Position numbers and translations under genes: made by a program. The notes under the pieces were generated by a model. That model did not search any database and was not told the DNA's origin. It saw only the letters and a program-made list of their open reading frames with translations. 32,000 nucleotides of DNA, taken from NCBI RefSeq assembly GCF_000025925.1, contig NC_014033.1, positions 630,001-662,000 on the forward strand. The letters are read 5' to 3'. Positions 1 through 14,236 of this stretch are shown here, in pieces. The DNA comes from Xylanibacter ruminicola 23. GTDB lineage: Bacteria > Bacteroidota > Bacteroidia > Bacteroidales > Bacteroidaceae. Numbering within the stretch: the stretch's first letter is position 1; each line of letters opens with the position of its first letter.

Positions 1-687
1 TTAGGTAATTTACTGTGTCCCCTTGAAAGATATGACAGTAATCTTGACTATGAGCTTTCGACACTTTTCGACGAGAACACAATTACGTACGAGCCGCTTT
101 CTCGCTTTGTATGTATGATGTATATCATAGAACATGCTGGTAAATGCCAAGCTGTGAGCCAGAATTTACTAGAATTGTTAAAGATGGTGGGAGTACGTTC
201 AAATCCTCTATACTTTGAACCTAAGGTAGAAGAATCTTCAGTTCACGAATCTTATCATTTGGACCAGATTCACAATATTCTTAAGAATAGTGATAAAGTT
301 AATTATTTATTAAAGCACATTGACACATCTACCGACTTATACGTGGCAATTAATAATTTTACATCGATGTTGGTTGATGAAAAAATCGCAGGCAATCTAA
401 CACATCAATTTATTAAATTCTTACGAAATGACATTTCCAACCATTGGATTGGGGAATACAATTCTGTGATGTCGAAGTATTCTTCTTATGAAGGGGACAT
501 GCTAGTACGTCTATCATATGCTATGTCAGTTTCTAAAATGGTGAGCTATGACAAGTTGCGGCAAGAAACCGTAAACAGAGTTGATACATCGATAAATCAC
601 ATTCAGGAAAAACGTAGTGAAATTGTTGATACTATTGAAGGATTTCAAGACAGATTTATACCCTATTGGATCACGACATTTTGGTGA
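1..687 (+). CDS. hypothetical protein, 5'-truncated by the window edge (first visible gene of the AT-rich operon)
   Basis: Frame +1 has no stop from nt 1 to TGA 685-687, so the listed ORF (ATG 115) probably continues upstream of the window. Its AT-rich composition matches the downstream genes. I recognise no motif. Confidence 0.55.
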   Translation, partial: LGNLLCPLERYDSNLDYELSTLFDENTITYEPLSRFVCMMYIIEHAGKCQAVSQNLLELLKMVGVRSNPLYFEPKVEESSVHESYHLDQIHNILKNSDKVNYLLKHIDTSTDLYVAINNFTSMLVDEKIAGNLTHQFIKFLRNDISNHWIGEYNSVMSKYSSYEGDMLVRLSYAMSVSKMVSYDKLRQETVNRVDTSINHIQEKRSEIVDTIEGFQDRFIPYWITTFW

Positions 688-730
688 ACCATTAGCTGGT
701 TATATTCAATTATTACAAAGAATAATATCA

Positions 731-1300
731 ATGTGTAAATTGATCAAGCAGGAATTGGAAGATGATTCAGCAAGCCTATCTACATATTTGATTTTGGAAA
801 CTCTCTCATGGAGAGTTGAAAACATGAAAACCTCTATTAATACATTGTGTGGACAATTAAAGGATATTGCTGAACGCATCTCGCGTAAAAGAACTGAAAT
901 TCGGACAAAATATCAAGTACCAATTGATGCGCTTCTCGAAAACCAATGGGTGTCTTTGTTGATAAATGACTGTGCCCCGATAGGTACTATTAAACCACCG
1001 TTTGATAACGATATTCTATGGAAAAAATATGCATGGAAGATTGGATCCTCAGACAAAATGAAATATATCATGTTTGAAATGAATCCCTCTCCCAAAGACA
1101 AGGAAGCATACTTTAAGTTTGAAGATATAGAATCCATTCGTAAAACAATAGAGTCTGTTTATACAGATTTGTGTAACTCGGCATATGTTCCAATACATAA
1201 TTTGTGCAAAGAGTCACTTAGTCGCGTACAGAATTACACAACTTTGCAAACCTATATAGAGAATCTCATAAATAATAAACAAGATGATACAGATAGATAA
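731..1300 (+). CDS. hypothetical protein (start uncertain; ORF is open from GTG 617)
   Basis: The track ORF 617..1300 starts at a GTG that overlaps the previous ORF by 71 nt. The first in-frame ATG is 731 (MCKLIKQ...). The stop at 1298-1300 overlaps the next gene's ATG (1284) by 17 nt. I recognise no motif. This could instead be the distal half of one frameshifted gene. Confidence 0.5.
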   Translation: MCKLIKQELEDDSASLSTYLILETLSWRVENMKTSINTLCGQLKDIAERISRKRTEIRTKYQVPIDALLENQWVSLLINDCAPIGTIKPPFDNDILWKKYAWKIGSSDKMKYIMFEMNPSPKDKEAYFKFEDIESIRKTIESVYTDLCNSAYVPIHNLCKESLSRVQNYTTLQTYIENLINNKQDDTDR

Positions 1301-2828
1301 ATACTCAAAAAAATACAAGATTGCTTTAGAACGACGGAAAAGTCCTCAGTTCGTCTCAATGCTTGACTCCGAGCTAAAAAGTTCGGAATGGGTAGCACAG
1401 CTGGCAGCTTGCCAATTGTCATTAGACAACATTACTAAGGCTGCGGATTTTGAGACAAAAGAAAATGCGATCAAAAGCTTGTTCAATCAGTTGTATGAGA
1501 AGATTACTGCTCCTGGTTTGGATGCATTTATTGGATGGATTGGTAGTTTGACCACATCAAAAAACGGAGAAAACATAAAAGCATTTAAGAAATTCTTAAA
1601 GGACAACTATGACAGCTATGCTGATGATATAGAAAAAATATTATCTGCGAAGGAAGTAGTATCCAAGATTGACGAAAAAAGCATCTTCGGTAAACTAATT
1701 TCTAATTTTGGAAACAAAATCAAGAAAATAGTTACTGAATTCATTGATAACAACACGTTTGAAAATGAAATAGATGGATTGCTAAAACAATTGAAGAATG
1801 AATATGAGGGTGTCTCGAGTATATCTGAACTTAACTATACTTCAGTAAAGGACCTGTATACTGCCGAACAAAAACAAGATAACACCATTGACTTTTATAG
1901 TGACATATTTGAACAGGCAAGAAAGAAGTTTCAATCTATGGATGTTCAAAAAGGTGAAGACAAAAACACCAATTATTTCACTATAATACGCAATCGTGTT
2001 ACTTCATTAACCAAATCAATATCATATTTGGTAAATAGCGGCGTGGCAAAGAATAATGATATGAACATCAAAGCATTATTCCTAAAATTCCAAAAAGAAA
2101 TGCCTATAGTTGAGGACGACTATCTTCAATCTCTTAAAGAATTTATAACAAAGGATTGGGAGAGCTTTCTAATAAAATATGAAACAATAAAGACCTTTTA
2201 TTCGTCTCCGATTTTAAATATCCCATCATCAAATTATGATGGTCTTAAAAGTGGTTCCAATATAAGCAATCTTATACTCAATTATACAAAGTTGTATAAT
2301 GAAGGATCTATAAGAATAGTTCCTTCTATATCAGCTTCTGACATGAAAAATCAGCTTGCCAAGAAGGCAAAGAGTATAAAAGACATGAACGATGAAGCTG
2401 CAAAAATCATGCAATCGGTAAATGAGGAATTTACTGACTTTATTGAAAAATATGAAAATCAGAAAGAAATGTTGGAGAAATCAACTGATAATGATGCCAG
2501 CCTTAAGGACAACTACGATTCCATATATGGTCAAGATGGAAGCTTGGACAATCTTAGGAACGGAATAACCGAATGCCTCTCTGATGGATGTAATTTTTTT
2601 AACACTTTAGCTAACCAAAGTATATTCCAAATGATCGAACTAATGAAAACAACAACAGAAAAGTTCGAGGAAACATTAAAACTTACCGGTTTGCAAGCTC
2701 CGATGGAATGGTTAGACTCTTTGCCAGATTTGATGAACTTAACAGAGTCTGATATAGACGAAAAGAAGATAAAATTGTTACTAAGCAAGGGCTTGATTAA
2801 GTTGGAAATTAAGAAAACTTATAACTGA
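1284..2828 (+). CDS. hypothetical 514-aa K/E/N-rich, probably alpha-helical protein
   Basis: Long uninterrupted ORF starting at ATG 1284. It overlaps the upstream gene, and its stop lies 1 nt before the next ATG (2830). There is no signal peptide and no catalytic motif I can recognise. Confidence 0.7.
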   Translation: MIQIDKYSKKYKIALERRKSPQFVSMLDSELKSSEWVAQLAACQLSLDNITKAADFETKENAIKSLFNQLYEKITAPGLDAFIGWIGSLTTSKNGENIKAFKKFLKDNYDSYADDIEKILSAKEVVSKIDEKSIFGKLISNFGNKIKKIVTEFIDNNTFENEIDGLLKQLKNEYEGVSSISELNYTSVKDLYTAEQKQDNTIDFYSDIFEQARKKFQSMDVQKGEDKNTNYFTIIRNRVTSLTKSISYLVNSGVAKNNDMNIKALFLKFQKEMPIVEDDYLQSLKEFITKDWESFLIKYETIKTFYSSPILNIPSSNYDGLKSGSNISNLILNYTKLYNEGSIRIVPSISASDMKNQLAKKAKSIKDMNDEAAKIMQSVNEEFTDFIEKYENQKEMLEKSTDNDASLKDNYDSIYGQDGSLDNLRNGITECLSDGCNFFNTLANQSIFQMIELMKTTTEKFEETLKLTGLQAPMEWLDSLPDLMNLTESDIDEKKIKLLLSKGLIKLEIKKTYN

Positions 2829-2829
2829 T

Positions 2830-4566
2830 ATGAAACAATTACATAAAGATATTATTGGTGCTCTAGATAGATTGAGAGTAAGCAGTCTTTACGTTCATAA
2901 CGCAGAATTACCTGGCGCTCATTTTTCGATACCAGAATTAAATGGAAGAAAGGTATATCTTGTAGAGACACTGGCTGTAATCAATGCCATAGTTGAACGT
3001 GGAACTATGATGTTGTACGGTGGACATGGTGGAGGCAAAACGACTCTTTCAAAGTATTTGGGGCAAATATTCATGCATTATTCAAAAGATAAAATTGAAG
3101 ACTGCATATTACGAGGACACCCGCAGTTAACAGAAGAAAAAATTCTTGGCAGCCTAGATTTTGCGCAAATGATGAATCCTGAATTAATCAAAGAGGGCAA
3201 AGTAAAGGTTATATGGAACGACTTTGTTGATTCCTCTTGGAAAATAATAGATGAAATTAATCGTCTTTCTCCATATGCTCAGAATATATTGTTGTCTCTT
3301 TTGGCAGAAGGTTCTGTAAAATATCATAATCAATCACGTACACTTGCTCCTTTTACTTTATTCGCAACTATGAATCCAAAGGACAACGCAAACTTTGAGC
3401 TGTCTTTGCCTTTTTTAGACCGATTCGCATTGGCTCTGCCCATTACAATGCCAGACTATGATAGTTTTAGTACAATTGGACGCAAGGACAAAATTGACAA
3501 CAACTTAAATGAATGGTTAAGGGACTTTTCTTTGCAGGATGTTCAAGAAGAAGTAAAGAATATTCACTATACAGATGAAGCAGAACTATTTGTTAACTTT
3601 TTAATAGATTCATATCGACTCTGCTGTCGCATATCAAAAGAAACTAACGAGTCTCTTTCTGTTGATAAGACGTTATGTAAAGGATGTCATATGGATGCCA
3701 AAGATAAAGTATGCTGTAAAATAAAGCATCCTTTAAGCGTACGCGTAAAAGAAGATCTTTATAGATACGGAAAAGCTATAGCGTGGTTCTTGGGAGATGA
3801 AAAAGTAGAAGTAAAACATATTGAGATACTGGCTCCTTATCTGATTTGGCATCGATCTGAATTAAGTAAAAAATTTTGCGATGAGCTGGTCCAAAACAAA
3901 TGTGAACACAGTTCTTTACGTACTGATAATGATGTTTTAGTTGACATACAGCTTGATGCCACAAAAGACATTATAAAGCTTATAAGAAAAGAATTTGACG
4001 GAGTCAAGAGCTTCTTGTTTGAATTTGAAGATGTAAAAAAGGGGAAATTGTCAGAAGAAGAATTCGACAAGTTAATTTCCGCATCAGAAAGTTCCCAGAA
4101 TAACTTTTTAATATTAACGTCGGAAATTGTTCCAATCCTTAAGGGGAAATACGCTCCCGTATATAATGAGATTTGTAAATACAATGATAAGATATCCATT
4201 ACAACTGACTTTAAAACGCTGAAATCTATCAAAGATGAATTGGCATATCGATATGATATTCCAAACAGAGCCTACATATTTGAGCAAATAGTTCAACGGT
4301 TAAGAGTATTACAATCTAACGAATATACATTTACTTTGACGGACGAATCAATTAAATCTGTGGATTCTATCCGTAATTTAGTTCTTAAAGTTCAGCCAAA
4401 TTTCCCCAAAAGGGTCACAATGTTTAAGAAAATTCCTTTGATGGATTTCAATAATGATGAATGTGAGCTTGCAATAAAATGTATATCCCAAGGTAAATGG
4501 GAATTCTATTTTAAAGGAGAAGAAACAAATATAATTTATAAGATCCTGTCTGACATAAATGGATAA
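2830..4566 (+). CDS. MoxR-family AAA+ ATPase with a Cys-rich insert and a long C-terminal extension (578 aa)
   Basis: Walker A is YGGHGGGKTT (nt ~3019-3045). Walker B is IIDEINR (DE at 3250-3255), followed by LSPYAQNILLSLLAEGSV, which resembles the MoxR 'DEINRA..Q.ALLEAM' signature. Sensor-1-like FATMNP and LPFLDRFAL are also present. The cluster CC-x16-CxxC-x8-CC lies at nt 3622-3717. Confidence 0.85.
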   Translation: MKQLHKDIIGALDRLRVSSLYVHNAELPGAHFSIPELNGRKVYLVETLAVINAIVERGTMMLYGGHGGGKTTLSKYLGQIFMHYSKDKIEDCILRGHPQLTEEKILGSLDFAQMMNPELIKEGKVKVIWNDFVDSSWKIIDEINRLSPYAQNILLSLLAEGSVKYHNQSRTLAPFTLFATMNPKDNANFELSLPFLDRFALALPITMPDYDSFSTIGRKDKIDNNLNEWLRDFSLQDVQEEVKNIHYTDEAELFVNFLIDSYRLCCRISKETNESLSVDKTLCKGCHMDAKDKVCCKIKHPLSVRVKEDLYRYGKAIAWFLGDEKVEVKHIEILAPYLIWHRSELSKKFCDELVQNKCEHSSLRTDNDVLVDIQLDATKDIIKLIRKEFDGVKSFLFEFEDVKKGKLSEEEFDKLISASESSQNNFLILTSEIVPILKGKYAPVYNEICKYNDKISITTDFKTLKSIKDELAYRYDIPNRAYIFEQIVQRLRVLQSNEYTFTLTDESIKSVDSIRNLVLKVQPNFPKRVTMFKKIPLMDFNNDECELAIKCISQGKWEFYFKGEETNIIYKILSDING

Positions 4567-6394
4567 TTCTGCCATTTACTTACAAAAAGCATTAGATGCT
4601 GTAGAGTGTGTATTTCAATGTGAATATAAAAATTCACTTGGTATACCTATGCCTGAAATTAAACTATTATTGGCTGACGATAAACATTATACGACAGGTG
4701 AGTATTATATCACAATTGGTAACACATGGCAAATACATCTGAATTTTGGGAAATTGCCTGTTAGTTTTGCTGAATTTCAAGAAGAGGTTAAGGTTCTTAC
4801 ACGTCATGAAATAGGTCATTACATGTGCTGCCCATTTGACACGATTACATACTTTCGTATGCTCAAATGCATTTTGTCAGTTTATGACAAAGAATTCAAG
4901 CATCTTGATTTGCAAAGAATTAATAGTATCTGTGGAGATATTGCAAATCAAGCAGCAGATATTATTGTTGATTCTAGAAATTTCTATTTCAACCCAAAAG
5001 AAACTGTAAAAAGCGAAATTAATTGGATACTAAAATGCGGAGGTATTGAAAATTCTCCTAGACATTCCAAACTCATGTTTCTAATGAAGGAGGCCATTTG
5101 GAAAACAAGTCTGAATATTTATGAAAGTGATACTGAGTTAAAAGATATTGTAAGTTCTCTAGCAAACACGTTTCTTGAAGATGGCATAGAAAACAAATCT
5201 TTATTTACACATAAAACGGAGGAATATGCCCGAGTATTCTTTCAATTGTTTATAAAAGATAAAAATAAGAATATAAAAGAATCCAACGATCAGCAGCAGA
5301 GTGGTCAGCAGCAGAGTGGTCAGCAGCAGAGTGGTCAGCAGCAGAGTGGTCAGCAGCAGAGTGGTCAGCAGCAGAGTGGTCAGCGGCAGAGTGGTCAGCA
5401 GCAGAATGGTCAGCGGCAGAGTGGTCAGCAGCAGAATGGTCAGCAGCAGAATGGTCAGCAGCAGAGCGAACAAGAAATCAATGGTTCAATGTCGGTTAAG
5501 CCAAAAGACGGTGACAAAGATGGAAATGCTTTAATCTTTTTAGACCCAGAAAAAGTAAAGGATGCATTGGAACAGCTAGCTTCTGAGACAACCATAAGTG
5601 AATTTGAAAGAATCTTGTCTGCTGCCGGTTTAAACCAATTGTCAGAAAAAGACAAAGAAAAATTATGGTTTTCAGTTCAAAGTGCAGGAATGATTCCCAT
5701 AGAAGAAGTCGGCAATGAAGGCGCAAAAGACAATTATACATATCCAACGAATTGGAGAATAGGAGATTCTATAGCAGATTTGGATATGATGTTAACATAT
5801 TCTACTGCACCAAAATTAATTCCTGGAATTACGACGAAAAAATGGGAACAATCTGTAAACGAGTATTTTGGAGTTGAACAAAGACAAAAGGATGCGTTGC
5901 TAGTTGTAGATACTTCTGGAAGTATGGGAGCTGTTTCCAGAGAAACAGACAATATGCATCAAGCTGTTCTCGCAGCTTTTGGTATCCTTAATTATTTTGA
6001 ATCACGCAAAGGTAAGATAGCCCTTGTAGAATTCTCTGATAATGTTAAAGAGTATATATCATGGACAAATGAGTATGAGAGAATACGCGATAAATTGCTT
6101 ACAAATGGAAGCGGCGGTACTCAATTTCCAATTCATAGTATTCGAGAAATTCTGGAACAATCAAAGAACGAATTGATTACAGTCATTATAACAGACGGAG
6201 AGTTAGGCAACATAAATGAGTCAGTAACTTTTTTTGAAGATTACCTAAATGATGAAAACAAATTATATGTTTTTCTATTGGGTAATAGTAAATCTTGTCG
6301 AGGATATGATAGGCTCGCAGAAATTGGAGCTAAGGTTTATCAAGCTGACAATGCGATAGATTTCTGCGACATGGTTATGGATGATCTAAATTAA
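4559..6394 (+). CDS. fusion protein: N-terminal HExxH metallopeptidase-like domain, Gln-rich repeat linker, C-terminal von Willebrand factor A (MIDAS) domain (DUF2201/COG3864-like)
   Basis: HEIGH at nt 4805-4819. The MIDAS motif DTSGS is at 5909-5923 (LLVVDTSGSMG), followed by GSGGTQ and VIITDGE. The ATG overlaps the MoxR stop (ATGGATAA), which implies translational coupling. Pairing of a MoxR ATPase with a vWA partner is a well established architecture. Confidence 0.8.
   Translation: MDNSAIYLQKALDAVECVFQCEYKNSLGIPMPEIKLLLADDKHYTTGEYYITIGNTWQIHLNFGKLPVSFAEFQEEVKVLTRHEIGHYMCCPFDTITYFRMLKCILSVYDKEFKHLDLQRINSICGDIANQAADIIVDSRNFYFNPKETVKSEINWILKCGGIENSPRHSKLMFLMKEAIWKTSLNIYESDTELKDIVSSLANTFLEDGIENKSLFTHKTEEYARVFFQLFIKDKNKNIKESNDQQQSGQQQSGQQQSGQQQSGQQQSGQQQSGQRQSGQQQNGQRQSGQQQNGQQQNGQQQSEQEINGSMSVKPKDGDKDGNALIFLDPEKVKDALEQLASETTISEFERILSAAGLNQLSEKDKEKLWFSVQSAGMIPIEEVGNEGAKDNYTYPTNWRIGDSIADLDMMLTYSTAPKLIPGITTKKWEQSVNEYFGVEQRQKDALLVVDTSGSMGAVSRETDNMHQAVLAAFGILNYFESRKGKIALVEFSDNVKEYISWTNEYERIRDKLLTNGSGGTQFPIHSIREILEQSKNELITVIITDGELGNINESVTFFEDYLNDENKLYVFLLGNSKSCRGYDRLAEIGAKVYQADNAIDFCDMVMDDLN
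5291..5470. repeat. in-frame 15-bp tandem repeat, ~12 copies (CAGCAGCAGAGTGGT and variants), encoding (QQSGQ)n
   Basis: Counted directly. There are six identical copies at 5291-5380, then variants CAGCGGCAGAGTGGT and CAGCAGCAGAATGGT, and a degenerate last unit at 5456-5470. Confidence 0.95.
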
Positions 6395-6397
6395 AAT

Positions 6398-6721
6398 ATG
6401 AGAAATTGTAATGCTATTTTTCTGACACTTGCACTCTCACTATTAATAATAGCATGTGAGAATAAGTCAAGGCAAACAGAACCGGTTGCCTGTGATAATC
6501 CGTCTGTTCTTGAGCAGCATACCCCTGATACAACATCCTCTATTCAAGACAAGTTGCCCAAAACTGAAACTTCTACAAGTATATCATTTTCCTCTTCGCA
6601 CTTTCATAAGTTAAGCAGTTACGATATTATGCGTGGCTTCGACCCTGCATCTGAGGACGACATGGGCGATAACGGCATAAGTCGGTATATGGAGAATAAT
6701 GATGATAAAGGTTGGGATTAA
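6398..6721 (+). CDS. small putative lipoprotein (107 aa)
   Basis: The N-terminus MRNCNAIFLTLALSLLIIAC-ENKS has a hydrophobic signal followed by a lipobox-like Cys. The ATG lies 3 nt after the vWA gene stop. The rest of the protein is S/T/D-rich and low complexity. Confidence 0.6.
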   Translation: MRNCNAIFLTLALSLLIIACENKSRQTEPVACDNPSVLEQHTPDTTSSIQDKLPKTETSTSISFSSSHFHKLSSYDIMRGFDPASEDDMGDNGISRYMENNDDKGWD

Positions 6722-6743
6722 TGATTATTTGGAAGAAATATTG

Positions 6744-6751
6744 TAACTTTG
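6744..6751 (+). promoter_or_regulatory. Bacteroidota -7 promoter motif TAACTTTG upstream of the AlbA_2 gene
   Basis: Matches the TAnnTTTG consensus, 16 nt upstream of ATG 6767. Confidence 0.45.
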
Positions 6752-6766
6752 CAAAAGATATAAAAT

Positions 6767-8359
6767 ATGGCACTGGCAATAAATATAGAAGATCTACTGA
6801 ACAAGCAGAAGATAGAGTCCAATAGGATTGAGTTCAAGAAAGGTTGGAATCCCGCAAGTATATACCATAGCGTGTGTGCTTTTGCCAATGATTTCGACGA
6901 TCTTGGTGGTGGATATATATTGGTTGGCGTAGATAGCGATGATGATACAGGGATGGCTATCCGTCCCGTCGTAGGTGTGCCGATAGAGAAAATTGACGGT
7001 ATTCTTCAGGATATGGTGAGCTATAACAACAAGATGTCACCGTATTATATGCCCAGGACAAGTGTTGAAGAGGTGGACGGAAAGCAGGTTCTGGTGATTT
7101 GGTGTCCTGCAGGCATCAACAGACCATACTCTGTACCTGAGAATGTGACTGCAAAGAATGGTAGCAAGGAGTATTTCTATATTCGTAGTGGTACGAGCAG
7201 CATCATTGCCAAGGGCGAGGTGCTAGACGAACTACGTGAATTGGCAAGTCGTGTACCGTTTGATGAAAGGGGGAATCCTGACATTAAAGTAGAGGATATA
7301 TCTACGTTGTTGCTTCGTGAGTATCTGGTTAAAGTAGGCAGTAAGCTGGCTAATGAGTTATACGAAAGACCACTGAGCGAGATTCTGGAGCAGATGGACT
7401 TGTATGTTGGTCCATCAGAAAACCGTATGCTGAGGAATGTTGCTGCAATGATGTTTTGCGAGAATCCAAGTAAGTTTTTCAAGCGGACACAGGTAGAAGT
7501 GGTTTTCTTCCCTGAAGGACGACTGGTAAATCCCAACAATCTCTATGAGGCTCCTGTCATCACAGGTTCCGTGACACAGATCATTGAGCGGACGTTGGAG
7601 TATCTGAATCGCATGGTGGTGATGCAATCCATCATTAAACCCAAGAATGACAACCACAGTATCAAGTTCTATACCTATCCTTACCAAGCATTGGAGGAAA
7701 GTATTACGAACTCGTTATATCATCGCGACTATCGGGAATGGGAGCCAGTGGTGATTACTGTCGAGCCGAAGGGTATTACCATTCAGAACGTTGGTGGGCC
7801 AGACCGCAGCATCCCAGTTGCTGACATCAATCGTGGAGAATTGCTTATCTCCAAACGTTATCGCAACCGTCGTTTGGGTGAATATCTGAAGGAATTGGAG
7901 TTGACCGAAGGACGAAGCACAGGTATTCCTACCATCCAGAATGTATTGAAGGCAAATGGCTCGCCTCGCGCTGTCGTCGTTACGGATGAAGAGCGCACCT
8001 TCTTCCGCATCACTATTCCCTGTCATGAAGCAGCGGGCAATGTTATTGCTGACATAGCGACAAGAGAGAAGATAAAGGATAGTTCACAGGAAATGGTCAA
8101 GAACATCCCTGATGTCCTGAAGGATGTCCTAAAAGATGTCCAGAAAGATGTCCTAAAAGAACTATCTGAAAGACAGATAGTTATACTTGAATTGATATGC
8201 ACATCACCAGAGGCAACTCTAATAGAAATGTCCAGAAAGCTTAAGGTGTCCGACAAGACTATTCAACGAGAGTTTACAGCTATTAGGAAACTTGGTATCA
8301 ATATTGAGCGCCAAAATGGACGCAAGGAAGGTAAATGGGTTATCAAAATTGGGAAATAG
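6767..8359 (+). CDS. AlbA_2 (Schlafen-like, 'divergent AAA') + HATPase_c_4 + C-terminal HTH protein; often annotated as ATP-binding protein or RecG-like putative DNA-binding protein
   Basis: The N-terminus ...ESNRIEFKKGW...CAFAND..GGYILVGV is typical of AlbA_2. NSLYHRDY and ...TEGRSTGIPTI are typical of the HATPase_c_4 region. The C-terminal LSERQIVILELI...TLIEMSRKLKVSDKTIQREF looks like a winged-helix/HTH. Confidence 0.8.
   Translation: MALAINIEDLLNKQKIESNRIEFKKGWNPASIYHSVCAFANDFDDLGGGYILVGVDSDDDTGMAIRPVVGVPIEKIDGILQDMVSYNNKMSPYYMPRTSVEEVDGKQVLVIWCPAGINRPYSVPENVTAKNGSKEYFYIRSGTSSIIAKGEVLDELRELASRVPFDERGNPDIKVEDISTLLLREYLVKVGSKLANELYERPLSEILEQMDLYVGPSENRMLRNVAAMMFCENPSKFFKRTQVEVVFFPEGRLVNPNNLYEAPVITGSVTQIIERTLEYLNRMVVMQSIIKPKNDNHSIKFYTYPYQALEESITNSLYHRDYREWEPVVITVEPKGITIQNVGGPDRSIPVADINRGELLISKRYRNRRLGEYLKELELTEGRSTGIPTIQNVLKANGSPRAVVVTDEERTFFRITIPCHEAAGNVIADIATREKIKDSSQEMVKNIPDVLKDVLKDVQKDVLKELSERQIVILELICTSPEATLIEMSRKLKVSDKTIQREFTAIRKLGINIERQNGRKEGKWVIKIGK
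8111..8158. repeat. 4 x 12-bp in-frame tandem repeat (GATGTCCTGAAG-like) encoding DVLK-DVLK-DVQK-DVLK
   Basis: Read directly. It lies between the HATPase_c_4 region and the HTH of the 6767-8359 gene. Confidence 0.9.
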
Positions 8360-8362
8360 GAA

Positions 8363-9346
8363 ATGGAGTTTAGTGAGGAACAGCTTAAAAAACTGTCAGT
8401 TCTATTTGAGGAAAAAGTTGAAAAAGAGCTAACAATCGAAGAGGTTCGAAAGTTTGTTCAGTTGGATACAATTGACGATTGCAAACAGTATTTACGGGTG
8501 ATGCTTGATTTCTTCTTCGAAGTCTTCAAATCACCAGAAGGGCGCAAAGCCATGTCATCTCTCGAAAATGAAAGAAACATTTGGCTTCAAACAATCTTTA
8601 GTAAGAGTTGCCATTTCCTATATTTGTTAGATGGTGTGGGGTATAATAATGGTTCCAACCATCTCAATCCTATTATAGACCCATCTGTATTGTTTACTAT
8701 TGCAAGAAGGATATATGAGTCAGTAATTGCTTTTGAGCTATTATTTGTCATCCCAAGCACAGAAGACGAACAAACAATTCTTTATAATCTTTTCATGGCT
8801 CAAGGACTAACAGAGAGATTAAATGATTTTGACGAAGAAATGCGTAGCCACAATCCCCAAAGAGTTGCAGAAGAACAGCAGAACATTGATAACTGCATGA
8901 ATGAGATAGAAAAAACGGAACTCTATTCGAACCTCAGTCAACAGACAAAGAATCAAATAAAAAATGCTTTTGGTATAAGATACCGATATGTGTTTGAGGA
9001 AGACAACACTATGAAACGAGTCAGTTTCGAAGATGCATATAAATATCTTCGAATCAAAAAGGATCTTCTCAAAAACACTTATTCATTCTTCAGTCTTCAT
9101 GGCCATCCATCATATTTGGCACTTATTCAATTTCATGATGCTTTCAAAAGAGAAAGTCGGGCAGATTTAACAATTATGGCTCCACATGCGACTCAATGTG
9201 TCCTGGCATTTATGAGCATTTTCATAGTAGATTATATGAAACTGGTTCCTGAGATTAAAGCCATGTATGATAAACTTGAAGAGCCAAGACGATTTGCAAT
9301 TGGCATGTACGAGGATGCAATGAAAGGTGAGAAGAAGTTTCAATAA
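8363..9346 (+). CDS. hypothetical 327-aa protein, coupled to the AlbA_2 gene
   Basis: The ATG lies 3 nt after the upstream stop. The ORF is AT-rich and uninterrupted. I recognise no catalytic or HEPN-type Rx4-6H motif. Confidence 0.65.
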   Translation: MEFSEEQLKKLSVLFEEKVEKELTIEEVRKFVQLDTIDDCKQYLRVMLDFFFEVFKSPEGRKAMSSLENERNIWLQTIFSKSCHFLYLLDGVGYNNGSNHLNPIIDPSVLFTIARRIYESVIAFELLFVIPSTEDEQTILYNLFMAQGLTERLNDFDEEMRSHNPQRVAEEQQNIDNCMNEIEKTELYSNLSQQTKNQIKNAFGIRYRYVFEEDNTMKRVSFEDAYKYLRIKKDLLKNTYSFFSLHGHPSYLALIQFHDAFKRESRADLTIMAPHATQCVLAFMSIFIVDYMKLVPEIKAMYDKLEEPRRFAIGMYEDAMKGEKKFQ

Positions 9347-9438
9347 AGAAATGATTCTCTGTGCAAGTATGCGAATATTTTTGGAAGTATCCATATTATA
9401 GTTTGATTGTTAGCTAATCTTGGTGGTATCTAATCTCC

Positions 9439-9493
9439 AAATTTGATGGAACAATTTAAAAATGTTCCATCAATGTTCCATCAAAATTTGATG
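9439..9493. repeat. compound direct/inverted repeat at the island-core junction
   Basis: AAATTTGATG occurs at 9439-9448 and 9484-9493. TTGATGGAACA (9443-9453) is the reverse complement of TGTTCCATCAA, which occurs twice in tandem (9463-9473 and 9473-9483). A third ATTTGATGT lies at 9675-9683, on the other side of the tRNA. Confidence 0.7.
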
Positions 9494-9494
9494 T

Positions 9495-9540
9495 GTTTGA
9501 AAACAGAAATCCCTGCAAGTGCTTGACTTACAGGGATTTG
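9495..9540 (-). terminator. intrinsic terminator after tRNA-His (possibly bidirectional)
   Basis: There is a 9-bp stem, AAATCCCTG (9507-9515) with CAGGGATTT (9531-9539), plus inner CAAG/CTTG pairing. On the minus strand it is followed by CTGTTTTC, and on the plus strand by GTTTT. Confidence 0.6.
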
Positions 9541-9548
9541 TTTTGGAG

Positions 9549-9623
9549 GGTGCCCGGTGGGACTCGAACCCACGACATTCAGAACCACAATCTGACGCTC
9601 TAACCAACTGAACTACGGGCACC
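9549..9623 (-). tRNA. tRNA-His (anticodon GUG) with genome-encoded G-1; no encoded CCA
   Basis: The reverse complement folds as G-1 / GUGCCCG / UA / GUUC-AGUUGGUUA-GAGC / G / UCAGA-UUGUGGU-UCUGA / AUGUC / GUGGG-UUCGAGU-CCCAC / CGGGCAC / C73. The anticodon loop UUGUGGU gives GUG. An extra 5' G opposite C73 is the bacterial tRNA-His hallmark. Confidence 0.93.
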
Positions 9624-9641
9624 ATTTCTGAATTGCGGGTG

Positions 9642-9649
9642 CAAAGGTA
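9642..9649 (-). promoter_or_regulatory. -7 promoter motif TACCTTTG (minus strand) for tRNA-His
   Basis: The plus strand reads CAAAGGTA, 19 nt upstream of the tRNA 5' end. Confidence 0.45.
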
Positions 9650-9776
9650 CGGAGTTTTTTTTAATCTACCAAACATTTGATGTAGTTTTTTATAAAAATT
9701 TAGTTTTTGGTTAAAAATGTATAACAAAGAGAGGCCGCTCGCGCGCGTTTCAATTATTCTTTGTAATTTTGCAGCC

Positions 9777-11943: not shown

Positions 11944-12972
11944 ATGGCTGAGGCAAAAAATGTGAGTTTTGAGAGCATTATGCGCGATTTGGAGGCTGGA
12001 AAATTTGCGCCCGTCTATTATCTGATGGGCGACGAATCGTATTATATCGACAAGATTGCCGATTATATAGCCGACCATGCATTACGCCCTGAGGAACGTG
12101 ATTTTAACCAGACTGTGGTGTTCGGATCGGACGTAAATGCGTCGCAGATAGCCGACCTGGCACGCCGCTATCCTATGATGGCCGAGCGCCAGGTGGTGAT
12201 AGTAAAAGAGGCGCAGAATATTAAAAATACCGAGGCACTTGAGCGCTATTTTGCGCAGCCTATGGCCAGCACCGTTTTGGTGATGTGCCATAAGAACGGC
12301 AAGGTTGACGGTAGAAAATCGGGGTACGTGAAGGCTATCAAATCGCACGGCATACTGTTTGAGAGTATGAAACTCAAGGATAGAGAGCTGCCAGGTTTTA
12401 TTGAGAACTATCTGAAAAAACGCCAGATCAGGATTGATGCCAAATCGGTTCAGATGATAGCCGAGAATATTGGCGCCGATTTGAGTAGACTGACAGGTGA
12501 GCTGGATAAAGTGATCATTTCGTTGCCCGAAGAGAATAGGGTAGTGACCCCGCAGGTGGTTGAGGAGCAGATTGGTGTGAGCAAAGAGTTTAATGGATTT
12601 GAACTTCGCGATGCCATTGTGAACCGAAATGTTTTTAAGGCAAATCAGATAATAAAATATTTTGACGAAAATCCAAAGGCTGGTTCCATCTACTCGTTTC
12701 TCCCTTTGCTCTTTAATTACTTCCAGAATTTAATGATTGCGTTTTACGCGCCAAATAATAAGAGCCAAGAGGGCGTTGCAGAGTGGCTGGAATTCAAAAA
12801 TCCATGGCAAGCCAAGGACTATATGACGGGTATGCGAAACTACTCTGGAATGAAGGTGATGCAGATCATTTCGAAGATGCGAGAGATTGACGCCAAAAGT
12901 AAGGGTCTGGATAACCCAAATACACCTGCTGGAGAGCTTATGAAAGAACTGATTTTTTACATTTTGCACTAA
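11944..12972 (+). CDS. holA: DNA polymerase III subunit delta
   Basis: The N-terminus ...GKFAPVYYLMGDESYYIDKIADYI..., the length of 342 aa and the overall layout are typical of HolA. Confidence 0.85.
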   Translation: MAEAKNVSFESIMRDLEAGKFAPVYYLMGDESYYIDKIADYIADHALRPEERDFNQTVVFGSDVNASQIADLARRYPMMAERQVVIVKEAQNIKNTEALERYFAQPMASTVLVMCHKNGKVDGRKSGYVKAIKSHGILFESMKLKDRELPGFIENYLKKRQIRIDAKSVQMIAENIGADLSRLTGELDKVIISLPEENRVVTPQVVEEQIGVSKEFNGFELRDAIVNRNVFKANQIIKYFDENPKAGSIYSFLPLLFNYFQNLMIAFYAPNNKSQEGVAEWLEFKNPWQAKDYMTGMRNYSGMKVMQIISKMREIDAKSKGLDNPNTPAGELMKELIFYILH

Positions 12973-13002
12973 TTTAGGGCAAAATGTTATTCTAGAATTT
13001 AT

Positions 13003-13033
13003 AAAAATGGCGCTTTTGATGAGCGCCTTTTTT
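13003..13033 (+). terminator. intrinsic terminator after holA
   Basis: AAAAA-GGCGCT(13009-13014)-tttgatg-AGCGCC(13022-13027)-TTTTTT. Confidence 0.7.
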
Positions 13034-13294
13034 ATGTCTAAATGTCTGTAAAATAGGGGAGTTACGGCATTTTGTACCCTCTCAAAACTCGCGTATTTCC
13101 AGTTTTTCGACCGATGGTTCAGAATACGCGAGAAATGGCAAAATCTGGAATTTTGGAGCTTGCGGAATTTAGTGTTCACATTTATTAGGATTTAATTTCA
13201 TTGATTTAAATTCTTAAATCTGAACATCTGTTTAGGAATTTATTGGTTTATGGATGTTGATTTTAGGATTTAAAAGCTTAAATCAGATATTTGA

Positions 13295-13316
13295 ATTTAG
13301 ATATTAATATCTAAAT
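13295..13316. repeat. perfect 22-bp palindrome ATTTAGATATT|AATATCTAAAT
   Basis: Read directly. It lies inside the ~700-bp AT-rich non-coding region. Confidence 0.9.
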
Positions 13317-13686
13317 ATTGTGATTCTGTTTTGTATATTGATATTTATGCATACTAATTATTGTGCATTTAAGTGGCTAAATATCAATTAGTTATGTAAT
13401 TTATTTATAAATACCTTGCAGAAATAGTCACCTTATTAAACCGAAAGCTGCAAAAGGGGTTTTAAAAGTATAAAGTTTACGTAACTACCTTATTTATACC
13501 CAATTAGTTAGATTAAAACATTAAAATAAGCCTTTGTACAGATTTATAATCGCAAATTTAGATTTAAAAATTTAAAGCCCCGATTTATTCCTAAACGTCT
13601 TTTGATTTACAAATATAAAACTATAAACTAAAATTATAAAATCTTAAATTGTATCTACATTTGTTGTATATTTCAATTTTTTGTTT

Positions 13687-13694
13687 TACCTTTG
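13687..13694 (+). promoter_or_regulatory. -7 promoter motif TACCTTTG for the HTH gene
   Basis: TAnnTTTG match 54 nt upstream of ATG 13748. Confidence 0.45.
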
Positions 13695-13747
13695 TAAACT
13701 GAAAGAAAACAGGGCCTAATAGCCCCATTAAGCACTTAGTTACAGCA

Positions 13748-14236
13748 ATGAAAGATAGAATCAGGCAAATTATGGAGAGCCAGCACATGACTCAACAGCT
13801 CTTCGCCGACTACATCGGTCAGAGTCCAGCTACCCTTAGTAGCATCTTCAACGGTCGTACTCGTCCTACCCTAAACATCGTTGAAGCCATCAAAAAGAAA
13901 ATTCCTAACATCAATACCGATTGGTTGATGTTTGGTTCGGGTGACATGTATCTGCCCCAAAACACTCCCGATCAGGATCTGTTTTCGGAGGCTGAAGGTA
14001 CCCCTGGTACCCACCCTATCGAGCAAAATCTGATGTTGAATTTTGATGATGCACCTGTACAAGCCCCCCAAAATGTGGCTCAGCAGCCCCAAAATTATAA
14101 TAGTGTACGTAATACACACCAAGAAATCGTTCGCGAGGAGGTAAAATTCATTGACAAACCGCAGCGTAAGGTTATCGAGATTCGTGTGTTTTACGATGAT
14201 CAGACATGGGATACTTTTGTACCTGCGAAGAAATAA
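13748..14236 (+). CDS. XRE-type helix-turn-helix domain protein (162 aa)
   Basis: MTQQLFADYIGQSPATLSSIFNGRTRPTLNIVEAI is a classic HTH_3 pattern. The middle of the protein is P/Q-rich. Confidence 0.8.
   Translation: MKDRIRQIMESQHMTQQLFADYIGQSPATLSSIFNGRTRPTLNIVEAIKKKIPNINTDWLMFGSGDMYLPQNTPDQDLFSEAEGTPGTHPIEQNLMLNFDDAPVQAPQNVAQQPQNYNSVRNTHQEIVREEVKFIDKPQRKVIEIRVFYDDQTWDTFVPAKK

Follow-up and report, generated by a model that had tools for sequence, protein, structure and literature searches.

A conserved seven-gene MoxR–vWA cassette at a variable tRNA-His site of Xylanibacter ruminicola 23, a candidate conflict or defence system of Bacteroidales

Introduction

In the pairs formed by an AAA+ ATPase of the MoxR family and a protein with a domain of von Willebrand factor A type (vWA), the metal-ion-dependent adhesion site (MIDAS) of the vWA domain captures a peptide of the client, which is then remodelled by the AAA+ ring, and all the characterised pairs of this kind are assembly or activation chaperones (PMC7159879). 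Comparative genomics has also predicted MoxR–vWA ternary conflict systems (Kaur, Burroughs, Iyer and Aravind 2020; PMC7159879), and the only experimentally tested MoxR–vWA sensing or defence pathway found in the literature searched is Esr, a threat-sensing pathway of oral Actinobacteria in which a MoxR–vWA pair is combined with divergent sensor proteins (2026 preprint; bioRxiv 10.64898/2026.09.08.750141). Here we describe a locus of Xylanibacter ruminicola 23 lying in a stretch of 32,000 nucleotides (positions 630,001 to 662,000 of NC_014033.1, henceforth the window), positions 1-6394 of which make up the distal part of a seven-gene cassette that is both conserved and horizontally mobile. We regard this cassette, with moderate confidence, as an accessory conflict or defence system centred on a MoxR–vWA pair.

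The genes of this cassette are A139, B311, C318, D1189 and E514, named after the lengths of their products in amino acids (aa), followed by F, encoding the MoxR ATPase, and G, encoding a protein with an HExxH motif and a vWA domain. A preliminary description of the window, made by a model from the sequence alone, had proposed a six-gene operon with its 5' end outside the window; the operon does extend upstream, but it has seven genes and four of them (A, B, C and D) start upstream, the window holding the last two-thirds of the cassette. The same description had named the ternary conflict systems as the relevant precedent, and this comparison proved to be the right one (PMC7159879).

Relation to described MoxR–vWA and STAND systems

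Ternary systems of the iSTAND type (PMC7159879; PMC12839542) are like the cassette in combining a MoxR ATPase and a vWA protein with a STAND-like NTPase, in being present in Bacteroidetes and in their predicted role as threshold-gated systems against invaders, whose vWA component can bear fused peptidase domains. Their third component, however, is a catalytically inactive STAND protein, whereas D of the cassette keeps invariant Walker A and Walker B motifs and, with 1189 aa and a unique architecture, is matched by no Pfam STAND model. The iSTAND-type vWA protein has a four-helix CoxE-like N-terminal domain and variable C-terminal effectors, whereas G ends with its vWA domain (residues 445-611) and carries its extra domain, with the HExxH motif, at the N-terminus. 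Four further conserved genes (A, B, C and E) likewise distinguish the cassette from this type.

Systems of the VMAP type share with the cassette a MoxR–vWA core joined to a third, diversifying component, and a metallopeptidase is occasionally found among their vWA-fused effectors (PMC7159879). Yet the VMAP protein is absent from the cassette, in which Pfam recognises AAA, vWA and a sub-threshold helix-turn-helix (HTH) only; the WxhapG and PsWRxa motifs found at the N-terminus of the VMAP-type MoxR are missing from F, there being no tryptophan in its first 60 residues; and the phyletic range is that of gut and rumen Bacteroidales rather than of actinobacteria or cyanobacteria with multicellular habits. 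Neither the FtsH-type protein nor the beta-propeller that mark the two other ternary types occurs in any of the seven cassette proteins, and the cassette fits none of the four published MoxR–vWA ternary subtypes.

Esr similarly links a MoxR–vWA pair to divergent proteins, but the surface beta-propeller filaments, kinase/phosphatase pair, FHA proteins and Esx secretion on which it relies are all missing from the cassette. The NorQ–NorD, RavA–ViaA and Rea1-MIDAS systems also consist of a MoxR-clade AAA+ ring and a vWA/MIDAS adaptor; these are housekeeping assembly factors with defined clients, in contrast to the cassette, which is accessory, mobile, found in defence islands and equipped with a protease-like domain. 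Lastly, the Avs/STAND NTPases resemble D in joining an N-terminal AAA+/STAND-like ATPase to a rapidly evolving C-terminal region, possibly an invader sensor. D has no significant match to them in sequence or structure, Avs3 being only among its weak Foldseek matches, and unlike them it carries no fused effector domain and relies on six further genes.

The family libraries agree with this picture of a system outside the current catalogues, as the preliminary description had anticipated. Scans of all the cassette proteins against Pfam, NCBIfam, PHROGs and PADLOC returned AAA_5/AAA_3, vWA and weak HTH matches only. In PADLOC-DB 2.0, including its PDC candidates, no core protein from A to G was matched better than E = 9e-5, a value that belongs to the HTH segment of B (E = 9.4e-5 and 1.3e-4 against the CARF3--CARF models), and D, E, F and G had no match better than E = 0.01. 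Sequences of the PDB gave nothing useful, either in profile searches (A, B, C and G) or in single-sequence searches (D and F), and no description of the cassette was found in the literature on MoxR combined with anti-phage or defence terms.

Conservation, exchange and decay of the cassette

In every related Bacteroidales locus of sufficient length the gene order is constant (A139, B of about 310 aa, C of about 318, D of about 1180, E of about 510, F of about 580 and G of about 560-670), and the 514-aa protein and the MoxR/vWA pair do co-occur, a point that the preliminary description had proposed to check. A metagenome scan with an A139 profile recovered 80 loci and, where the contig was long enough, B was present in 69 of 70, C in 61 of 62, D in 52 of 53, E in 50 of 52 and F in 44 of 45, A139 not being seen outside the cassette in the loci recovered. 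The cassette recurs on metagenome contigs labelled human gut and also in Phocaeicola vulgatus, Bacteroides fragilis and Prevotellaceae; a scan of genome contigs gave at least three species representatives, a lower bound that depends on the search pattern. The seven proteins differ widely in conservation. Compared with the type found in the window, A is 76-96% identical, F 53-59%, B and C about 50%, G 45-58%, D about 37% and E only 26-36%, the least conserved parts of the whole cassette being the C-terminus of D and E.

Two Prevotellaceae loci show how the cassette changes between strains. One is L001 (GCA_019973335.1), of the same strain as the window, and the other is L007, from a metagenome-assembled genome of Prevotella. 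On aligning positions 2280-15447 of L001 with 3852-16901 of L007, the nucleotide identity is 82-97% over an HTH gene and A, drops to about 57-70% between the start of B and the end of G, and returns to 81-91% exactly at the start of a lipoprotein gene, remaining so through the flank formed by this gene and a Schlafen gene. The breakpoints coincide with the A/B and G/lipoprotein gene boundaries, and the B–G block looks like one exchanged between conserved flanks, in a manner resembling allelic replacement of the cassette core.

Other copies have decayed. In one (L031, 6643-8421) a transposase of insertion sequence (IS) type is inserted after codon 28 of E, while two more are truncated, within C (L066, 10001-11875) and within A (L104, 4038-4340). 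Such sporadic decay is compatible with accessory cargo rather than with a core function.

Gene D and the lesion in the window

The upstream DNA in L001 contains a gene for an XRE-type HTH protein, then A (139 aa), B (311 aa), C (318 aa) and the start of D, the latter lying about 2.3 kb upstream of the window. Over 14.5 kb the window is identical to L001 save for one extra A at 638..639 (+ strand; GAAGG in the window, GAGG in the other same-strain assemblies), and D is a single intact open reading frame (ORF) of 1189 aa in L001 and in a Logan assembly of the same strain (L002, SRR4090641), as it is also intact in GCA_900108375.1. The ORFs 1-687 and 617-1300, counted in the preliminary description among two or three separate helical proteins, are the C-terminal 433 codons of this one gene (1..1300, + strand), split by the frameshift. 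Given that the remainder of the 14.5 kb is identical and free of further lesions, a very recent mutation or an error of assembly or sequencing is as likely as a long-standing loss of function. With D frameshifted, the copy in the window may be inactive.

From its motifs and weak remote matches D is predicted to be an AAA+ ATPase of the origin recognition complex (ORC)/STAND type with an otherwise novel architecture. Its Walker A motif is GAFGIGKT, in which G49-K55 (GAFGIGK) are invariant and T56 is partly conserved, and in its Walker B motif, LLLIDEFE, D193-E194 are invariant. The AlphaFold2 (AF2) model has a predicted local distance difference test (pLDDT) score of 80.9, and residues 757-1189, the part encoded in the window, are all-helical in it. 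A Foldseek search with this confident model gave no significant match in PDB or BFVD, the best weak matches being Orc1/Cdc6, DnaA domain III and Avs3 (best E = 0.14), and distant relatives of D have sub-threshold Pfam matches to AAA, AAA_22, ATPase_2 and nSTAND_NTPase5. Within D, conservation is highest in the N-terminal 300 residues and lowest in residues 800-1189.

The D family is small, with 158 matches when 1.84 billion representatives were searched exhaustively with HMMER. Some relatives, about 1700 aa long, consist of D fused to E, and the E profile aligns to the C-terminus of one of them (P0277) with an hhalign probability of 99.6% (E = 2e-24), an argument for a physical partnership of D and E. 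Other proteins (P0300-P0303, of about 1630 aa, and P0315-P0348, of about 1080 aa) have only the first 550-750 residues of D in common and differ in their C-terminal halves. Two haloarchaeal plasmids (L016, 11974-18171, and L017, 11962-17233) carry four-gene operons of hypothetical proteins, the first gene of which shares the N-terminal approximately 300 residues of D at about 25% identity, and one of the partner genes has a weak LmuB-like match. These operons could be archaeal kin of the D module, distantly related and devoid of MoxR and vWA.

Genes E, F and G

Gene E (514 aa; 1284..2828, + strand) overlaps D by 17 nt and encodes a fast-evolving protein with no known domain and only weak matches of the coiled-coil type, whose homologues form 25 clusters among 5.8 billion proteins. 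The notion that E is a duplicate of the helical tail of D was ruled out, there being no similarity between the two.

Gene F (2830..4566, + strand) encodes a protein of 578 aa that scores 46.7 bits against Pfam AAA_5 (cut-off 22) and 27.9 bits against AAA_3 (cut-off 27) and is named MoxR family ATPase by NCBI. Its motifs comprise Walker A GGHGGGKT (K70; 3019..3042, + strand), Walker B IIDEINR (3244..3264, + strand), ATMNPKD and LDRF, and in the forms GGHGGGKT, IIDEINR, ATxNPKD and LPFxDRF they are invariant across eight cassette types. On these signatures F is assigned to the MoxR family, with catalytic motifs intact, in keeping with the preliminary reading of this gene, and it is apparently an active ATPase. 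A Cys-rich insert is also present, and about 330 aa with no assigned fold extend the protein at its C-terminus.

Gene G (611 aa; 4559..6394, + strand) combines the two features ascribed to it at the outset. Its C-terminus is a vWA/MIDAS domain. It scores 39.2 bits against Pfam VWA_2 (cut-off 27), and the MIDAS residues, namely DTSGS at 451-455 (the DxSxS of D451, S453 and S455; 5909..5923, + strand), T521 (within 6113-6124, + strand) and D546 (within 6188-6199, + strand), are invariant in 20 homologues, as is the HEIGH motif at residues 83-87 (H83, E84 and H87; 4805..4819, + strand). The model of G has a mean pLDDT of 62.8. It begins with a helix, three strands and a helix (70-89) bearing the HExxH motif, continues with a confident helical bundle up to residue 247 and a disordered Q/G/S-rich linker, and ends with a small helical domain (330-376), a conserved stretch that is not modelled and the vWA domain (445-611). 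An invariant HExxH in a helix that follows three strands suggests a zincin-like N-terminus, albeit in a low-confidence part of the model, and invariant D94, C90 and C91 are candidate third zinc ligands. In Foldseek searches the vWA part alone was matched, to NorD of NorQD complexes and Rea1-MIDAS among others (E = 1e-4 to 1e-3). The comparison of predicted structures, recommended in the preliminary description, was thus informative for the vWA domain of G, but it brought no significant match for D or for the N-terminal fold of G.

The linker of G, (QQQSG)n, comes from a 15-nt unit repeated in tandem 11.8 times (5290..5466, + strand). Some alleles have almost no linker and others one of over 100 residues, and lengths differ even where alleles are 91-97% identical; this variation suggests in-frame slippage.

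Genes A, B and C and the flanking genes

A and C had no matches in Pfam, PADLOC or PDB sequence searches, and B has a weak, sub-threshold HTH at its C-terminus. The XRE HTH gene upstream of A is optional, most cassettes being without it, and matches generic PADLOC HTH models (RmrA, HTH_VI and PDC-M64/M69) down to E = 1.3e-7. A139 was considered as a MazF/PemK-like toxin paired with this HTH protein, but this found no support. In an hhalign comparison with an ad hoc set of five aligned MazF-family sequences, the probability was 14%, over the last 30 residues only, and most cassettes have no HTH gene with which A could be paired.

The predicted lipoprotein of 107 aa (6398..6721, + strand), for which the role of an envelope partner or effector had been suggested, is a local neighbour. 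It is present in L001 and L007 only, and none of the other full-length loci examined has it 3' of the vWA gene, while the 80 metagenome loci end inside the vWA gene, so that a lipoprotein count of zero is uninformative there. It is not core to the cassette.

The ORF map reproduced the tight packing reported earlier, with same-strand junctions at 1284/1300, 2828/2830, 4559/4566 and 6394/6398. The AT-rich character of the region was upheld as well: its GC content is 34.9% over 1-6721 and 36.6% over 1-9346, whereas the remainder of the window has 48.1%. A gene for a Schlafen protein with AlbA_2, HATPase_c_4 and HTH domains (530 aa; 6767-8359, + strand) follows and, together with a DUF5677 gene (327 aa), occupies 6767..9346 (+ strand); the two form a neighbouring module of their own within this AT-rich island, and a 12-nt repeat at 8111-8160 codes for a (DVLK)n stretch. 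Beyond lies the expected tRNA-His(GTG) gene (9548..9622, - strand), the right edge of a variable hotspot and the sole match of an Rfam scan. A scan for sigma-70 promoters and terminators did no better than on shuffled sequence. A second AT-rich stretch, at about 12,970-13,750 (32-39% GC), is largely intergenic, with a DNA polymerase III delta gene on one side and an HTH_3 gene (13748-14236) on the other.

Genomic context

The accessory status of the cassette follows from the differing cargo at this site. We compared the interval from an arabinofuranosidase gene to tRNA-His/NIF3 across contigs coding for an identical NIF3 protein (L018-L025), and found the same cassette in L018, genes for HI_0787_N, PDDEXK_13/REase-ARP, AAA_14/DUF4143 and DUF559 in L019, a Schlafen gene only in L020, and unrelated small genes in L022 and L024. 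The interval (about 9346-9717 in the window) thus holds at least four different cargo sets in X. ruminicola-like genomes; the tRNA-His site is a hotspot of variable content, where the cassette is accessory rather than part of a syntenic core, as had been supposed. Integration at tRNA-His by way of att repeats was considered and dismissed, as the flanks share no direct repeat of at least 14 nt. Extension of the contig, which had been advised for finding the operon start and any integrase, recovered the former, but no integrase lies in the island.

Elsewhere the cassette stands beside known or candidate defence genes. It adjoins BREX in GCA_016648615.1, a reverse transcriptase (RT)-Cas1/Cas2 locus of CRISPR-Cas in another genome, and, in others, type I restriction-modification (RM) and NERD/SLFN-type helicase genes, the PADLOC candidate PDC-M62A/B (Septu-like) and an SpbK-like TIR protein. 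In GCA_016648615.1 a second HTH_3 gene and a 140-aa gene follow the vWA gene, directly before the BrxC/PglY-PglX BREX operon, and this pair mirrors HTH and A139 where the cassette begins. Homologues of the Schlafen gene also come after the cassette in Phocaeicola-type loci, with an HTH_3 gene ahead of them and genes for type I RM or a NERD helicase beyond.

A census of the 10 kb upstream of the cassette comprised 104 distinct proteins. The commonest immediate neighbour, in 29 loci, is an AbiLi-like AAA_21 ATPase (432 aa; PADLOC AbiLi, E = 6e-70), whose gene, on the same strand, stops 48 nt short of A139 (L010, L013 and 27 further loci) and which may be co-transcribed with, or an added component of, the common human-gut type of the cassette. 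Other upstream neighbours include type I/IIG restriction enzymes, DRT2 and mad1/mad2 and, among mobile-element genes, those for integrases, relaxases, DUF3987 primases, excisionases (HTH_17), transposases and Arm-DNA-binding domains, some copies of the cassette lying inside integrative elements. The only plasmid matches were the distant haloarchaeal ones to the N-terminal 300 aa of D.

Possible function and mechanism

The cassette is most likely a nucleoside triphosphate (NTP)-dependent anti-invader system, directed against phages or mobile elements. A more particular proposal, which we put forward tentatively and hold at somewhat less than even, is that it is an uncatalogued, Bacteroidales-restricted seven-gene immune system in which D, as a catalytically competent ATPase, and the hypervariable E sense the invader and license the MoxR ATPase to deploy a tethered metalloprotease. 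In such a system D, STAND/ORC-like with a diverging helical C-terminal arm, would form together with E the invader sensor or scaffold, F would assemble as a MoxR hexamer, and G would dock on F, with the vWA/MIDAS domain of G capturing an acidic peptide of a partner protein. ATP hydrolysis by F could then remodel the complex of F, G and the partner, and thereby release or position the zincin-like HExxH domain, tethered to the vWA domain through the long Q-rich linker. This domain would be the output, either unmasked by the remodelling or delivered to the bound target, and the protease would cleave a host, invader or cassette protein, conceivably a pro-effector among A-C, the outcome being growth arrest or loss of the invader. 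B, with its C-terminal HTH, and the very conserved A might be nucleic-acid-binding or regulatory parts, A-C as a whole providing regulation, nucleic-acid binding or a protease-activated pro-effector. What the sequences establish is the gene order, its conservation, the intact motifs, the fusion of D with E, the accessory status and the surrounding defence genes; the steps of the scheme, like the defence role, are inferred, and as a specific chain of events the scheme is distinctly doubtful.

Several observations weigh against a defence role in general or against the part given to G. The role is ascribed by guilt by association, from genomic neighbours compared with no statistical background control. 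Many of the neighbours are mobile-element genes, which leaves room for a role in the biology of the element itself. No toxic effector domain (nuclease, TIR, pore and the like) is recognisable in the cassette, and the searches assigned no fold to A, B, C or E. For G, no peptidase family was matched in Pfam, NCBIfam or PDB, and the pLDDT over residues 20-100 is just 42-66, which makes the peptidase topology one of low confidence. Searches of phage records and viral contigs did not turn up the cassette; this is neutral as regards defence, and it also provides no counter-defence context.

Among the other explanations, the one nearest to the window itself is that the cluster is a decaying, non-functional remnant with a real frameshift in D. 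The extra A at 638-639 that splits D and the IS-broken or truncated state of other copies speak for it, but D is intact in L001, in the Logan assembly SRR4090641 and in GCA_900108375.1, and with the rest of the 14.5 kb identical and without lesions an error, or a very recent mutation, is just as likely. On balance we find a remnant unlikely, and this question is separate from that of the original role of the cassette. It is also improbable, in our estimate, that the cassette works for the benefit of the mobile elements carrying it, by exclusion of competitors, by addiction or stabilisation, or by counter-defence. Integrases, relaxases, excisionases, DUF3987 primases and transposases are indeed frequent upstream, L008 has a serine recombinase, and L009 has ArdC-like, SSB and M23 genes typical of conjugative elements. 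Yet the X. ruminicola hotspot is without integrase or transfer genes and its alternative cargo is restriction-endonuclease-like, and other copies abut BREX, CRISPR-Cas or type I RM with no element genes between. Moreover, elements commonly carry defence cargo, so that context separates this explanation from a defence role in neither direction.

The precedent of the characterised pairs, all of them assembly or activation chaperones (PMC7159879), and the resemblance of the vWA domain of G to NorD in NorQD structures would favour a housekeeping-type MoxR–vWA chaperone in the manner of RavA–ViaA, NorQ–NorD, CbbQ–CbbO or CoxD–CoxE, assembling or metallating a specific complex encoded by the other genes. 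We consider this very improbable. The cassette is patchy, strain-variable, AT-rich and situated in defence or mobile contexts, its copies are repeatedly inactivated, and D and E diverge quickly, unlike chaperone clients. Nor are genes for an enzyme or a respiratory complex linked to it, and the searches with A to E, for which the preliminary description had named clear homology to a housekeeping complex as evidence to the contrary, gave no match to such a complex.

Implications

If the interpretation of the cassette as a defence system is true, gut and rumen commensals possess a MoxR–vWA immune module composed mostly of protein families without known relatives. It would enlarge the thin defence catalogue of the Bacteroidales, and bears in this way on gut phage ecology and phage therapy. 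Being compact and well delimited, the cassette would be a tractable model for the gating of a protease in immunity by an AAA+ remodeller and a MIDAS adaptor, and its proteins, five of the seven lacking a recognisable family, would be a source of new folds.

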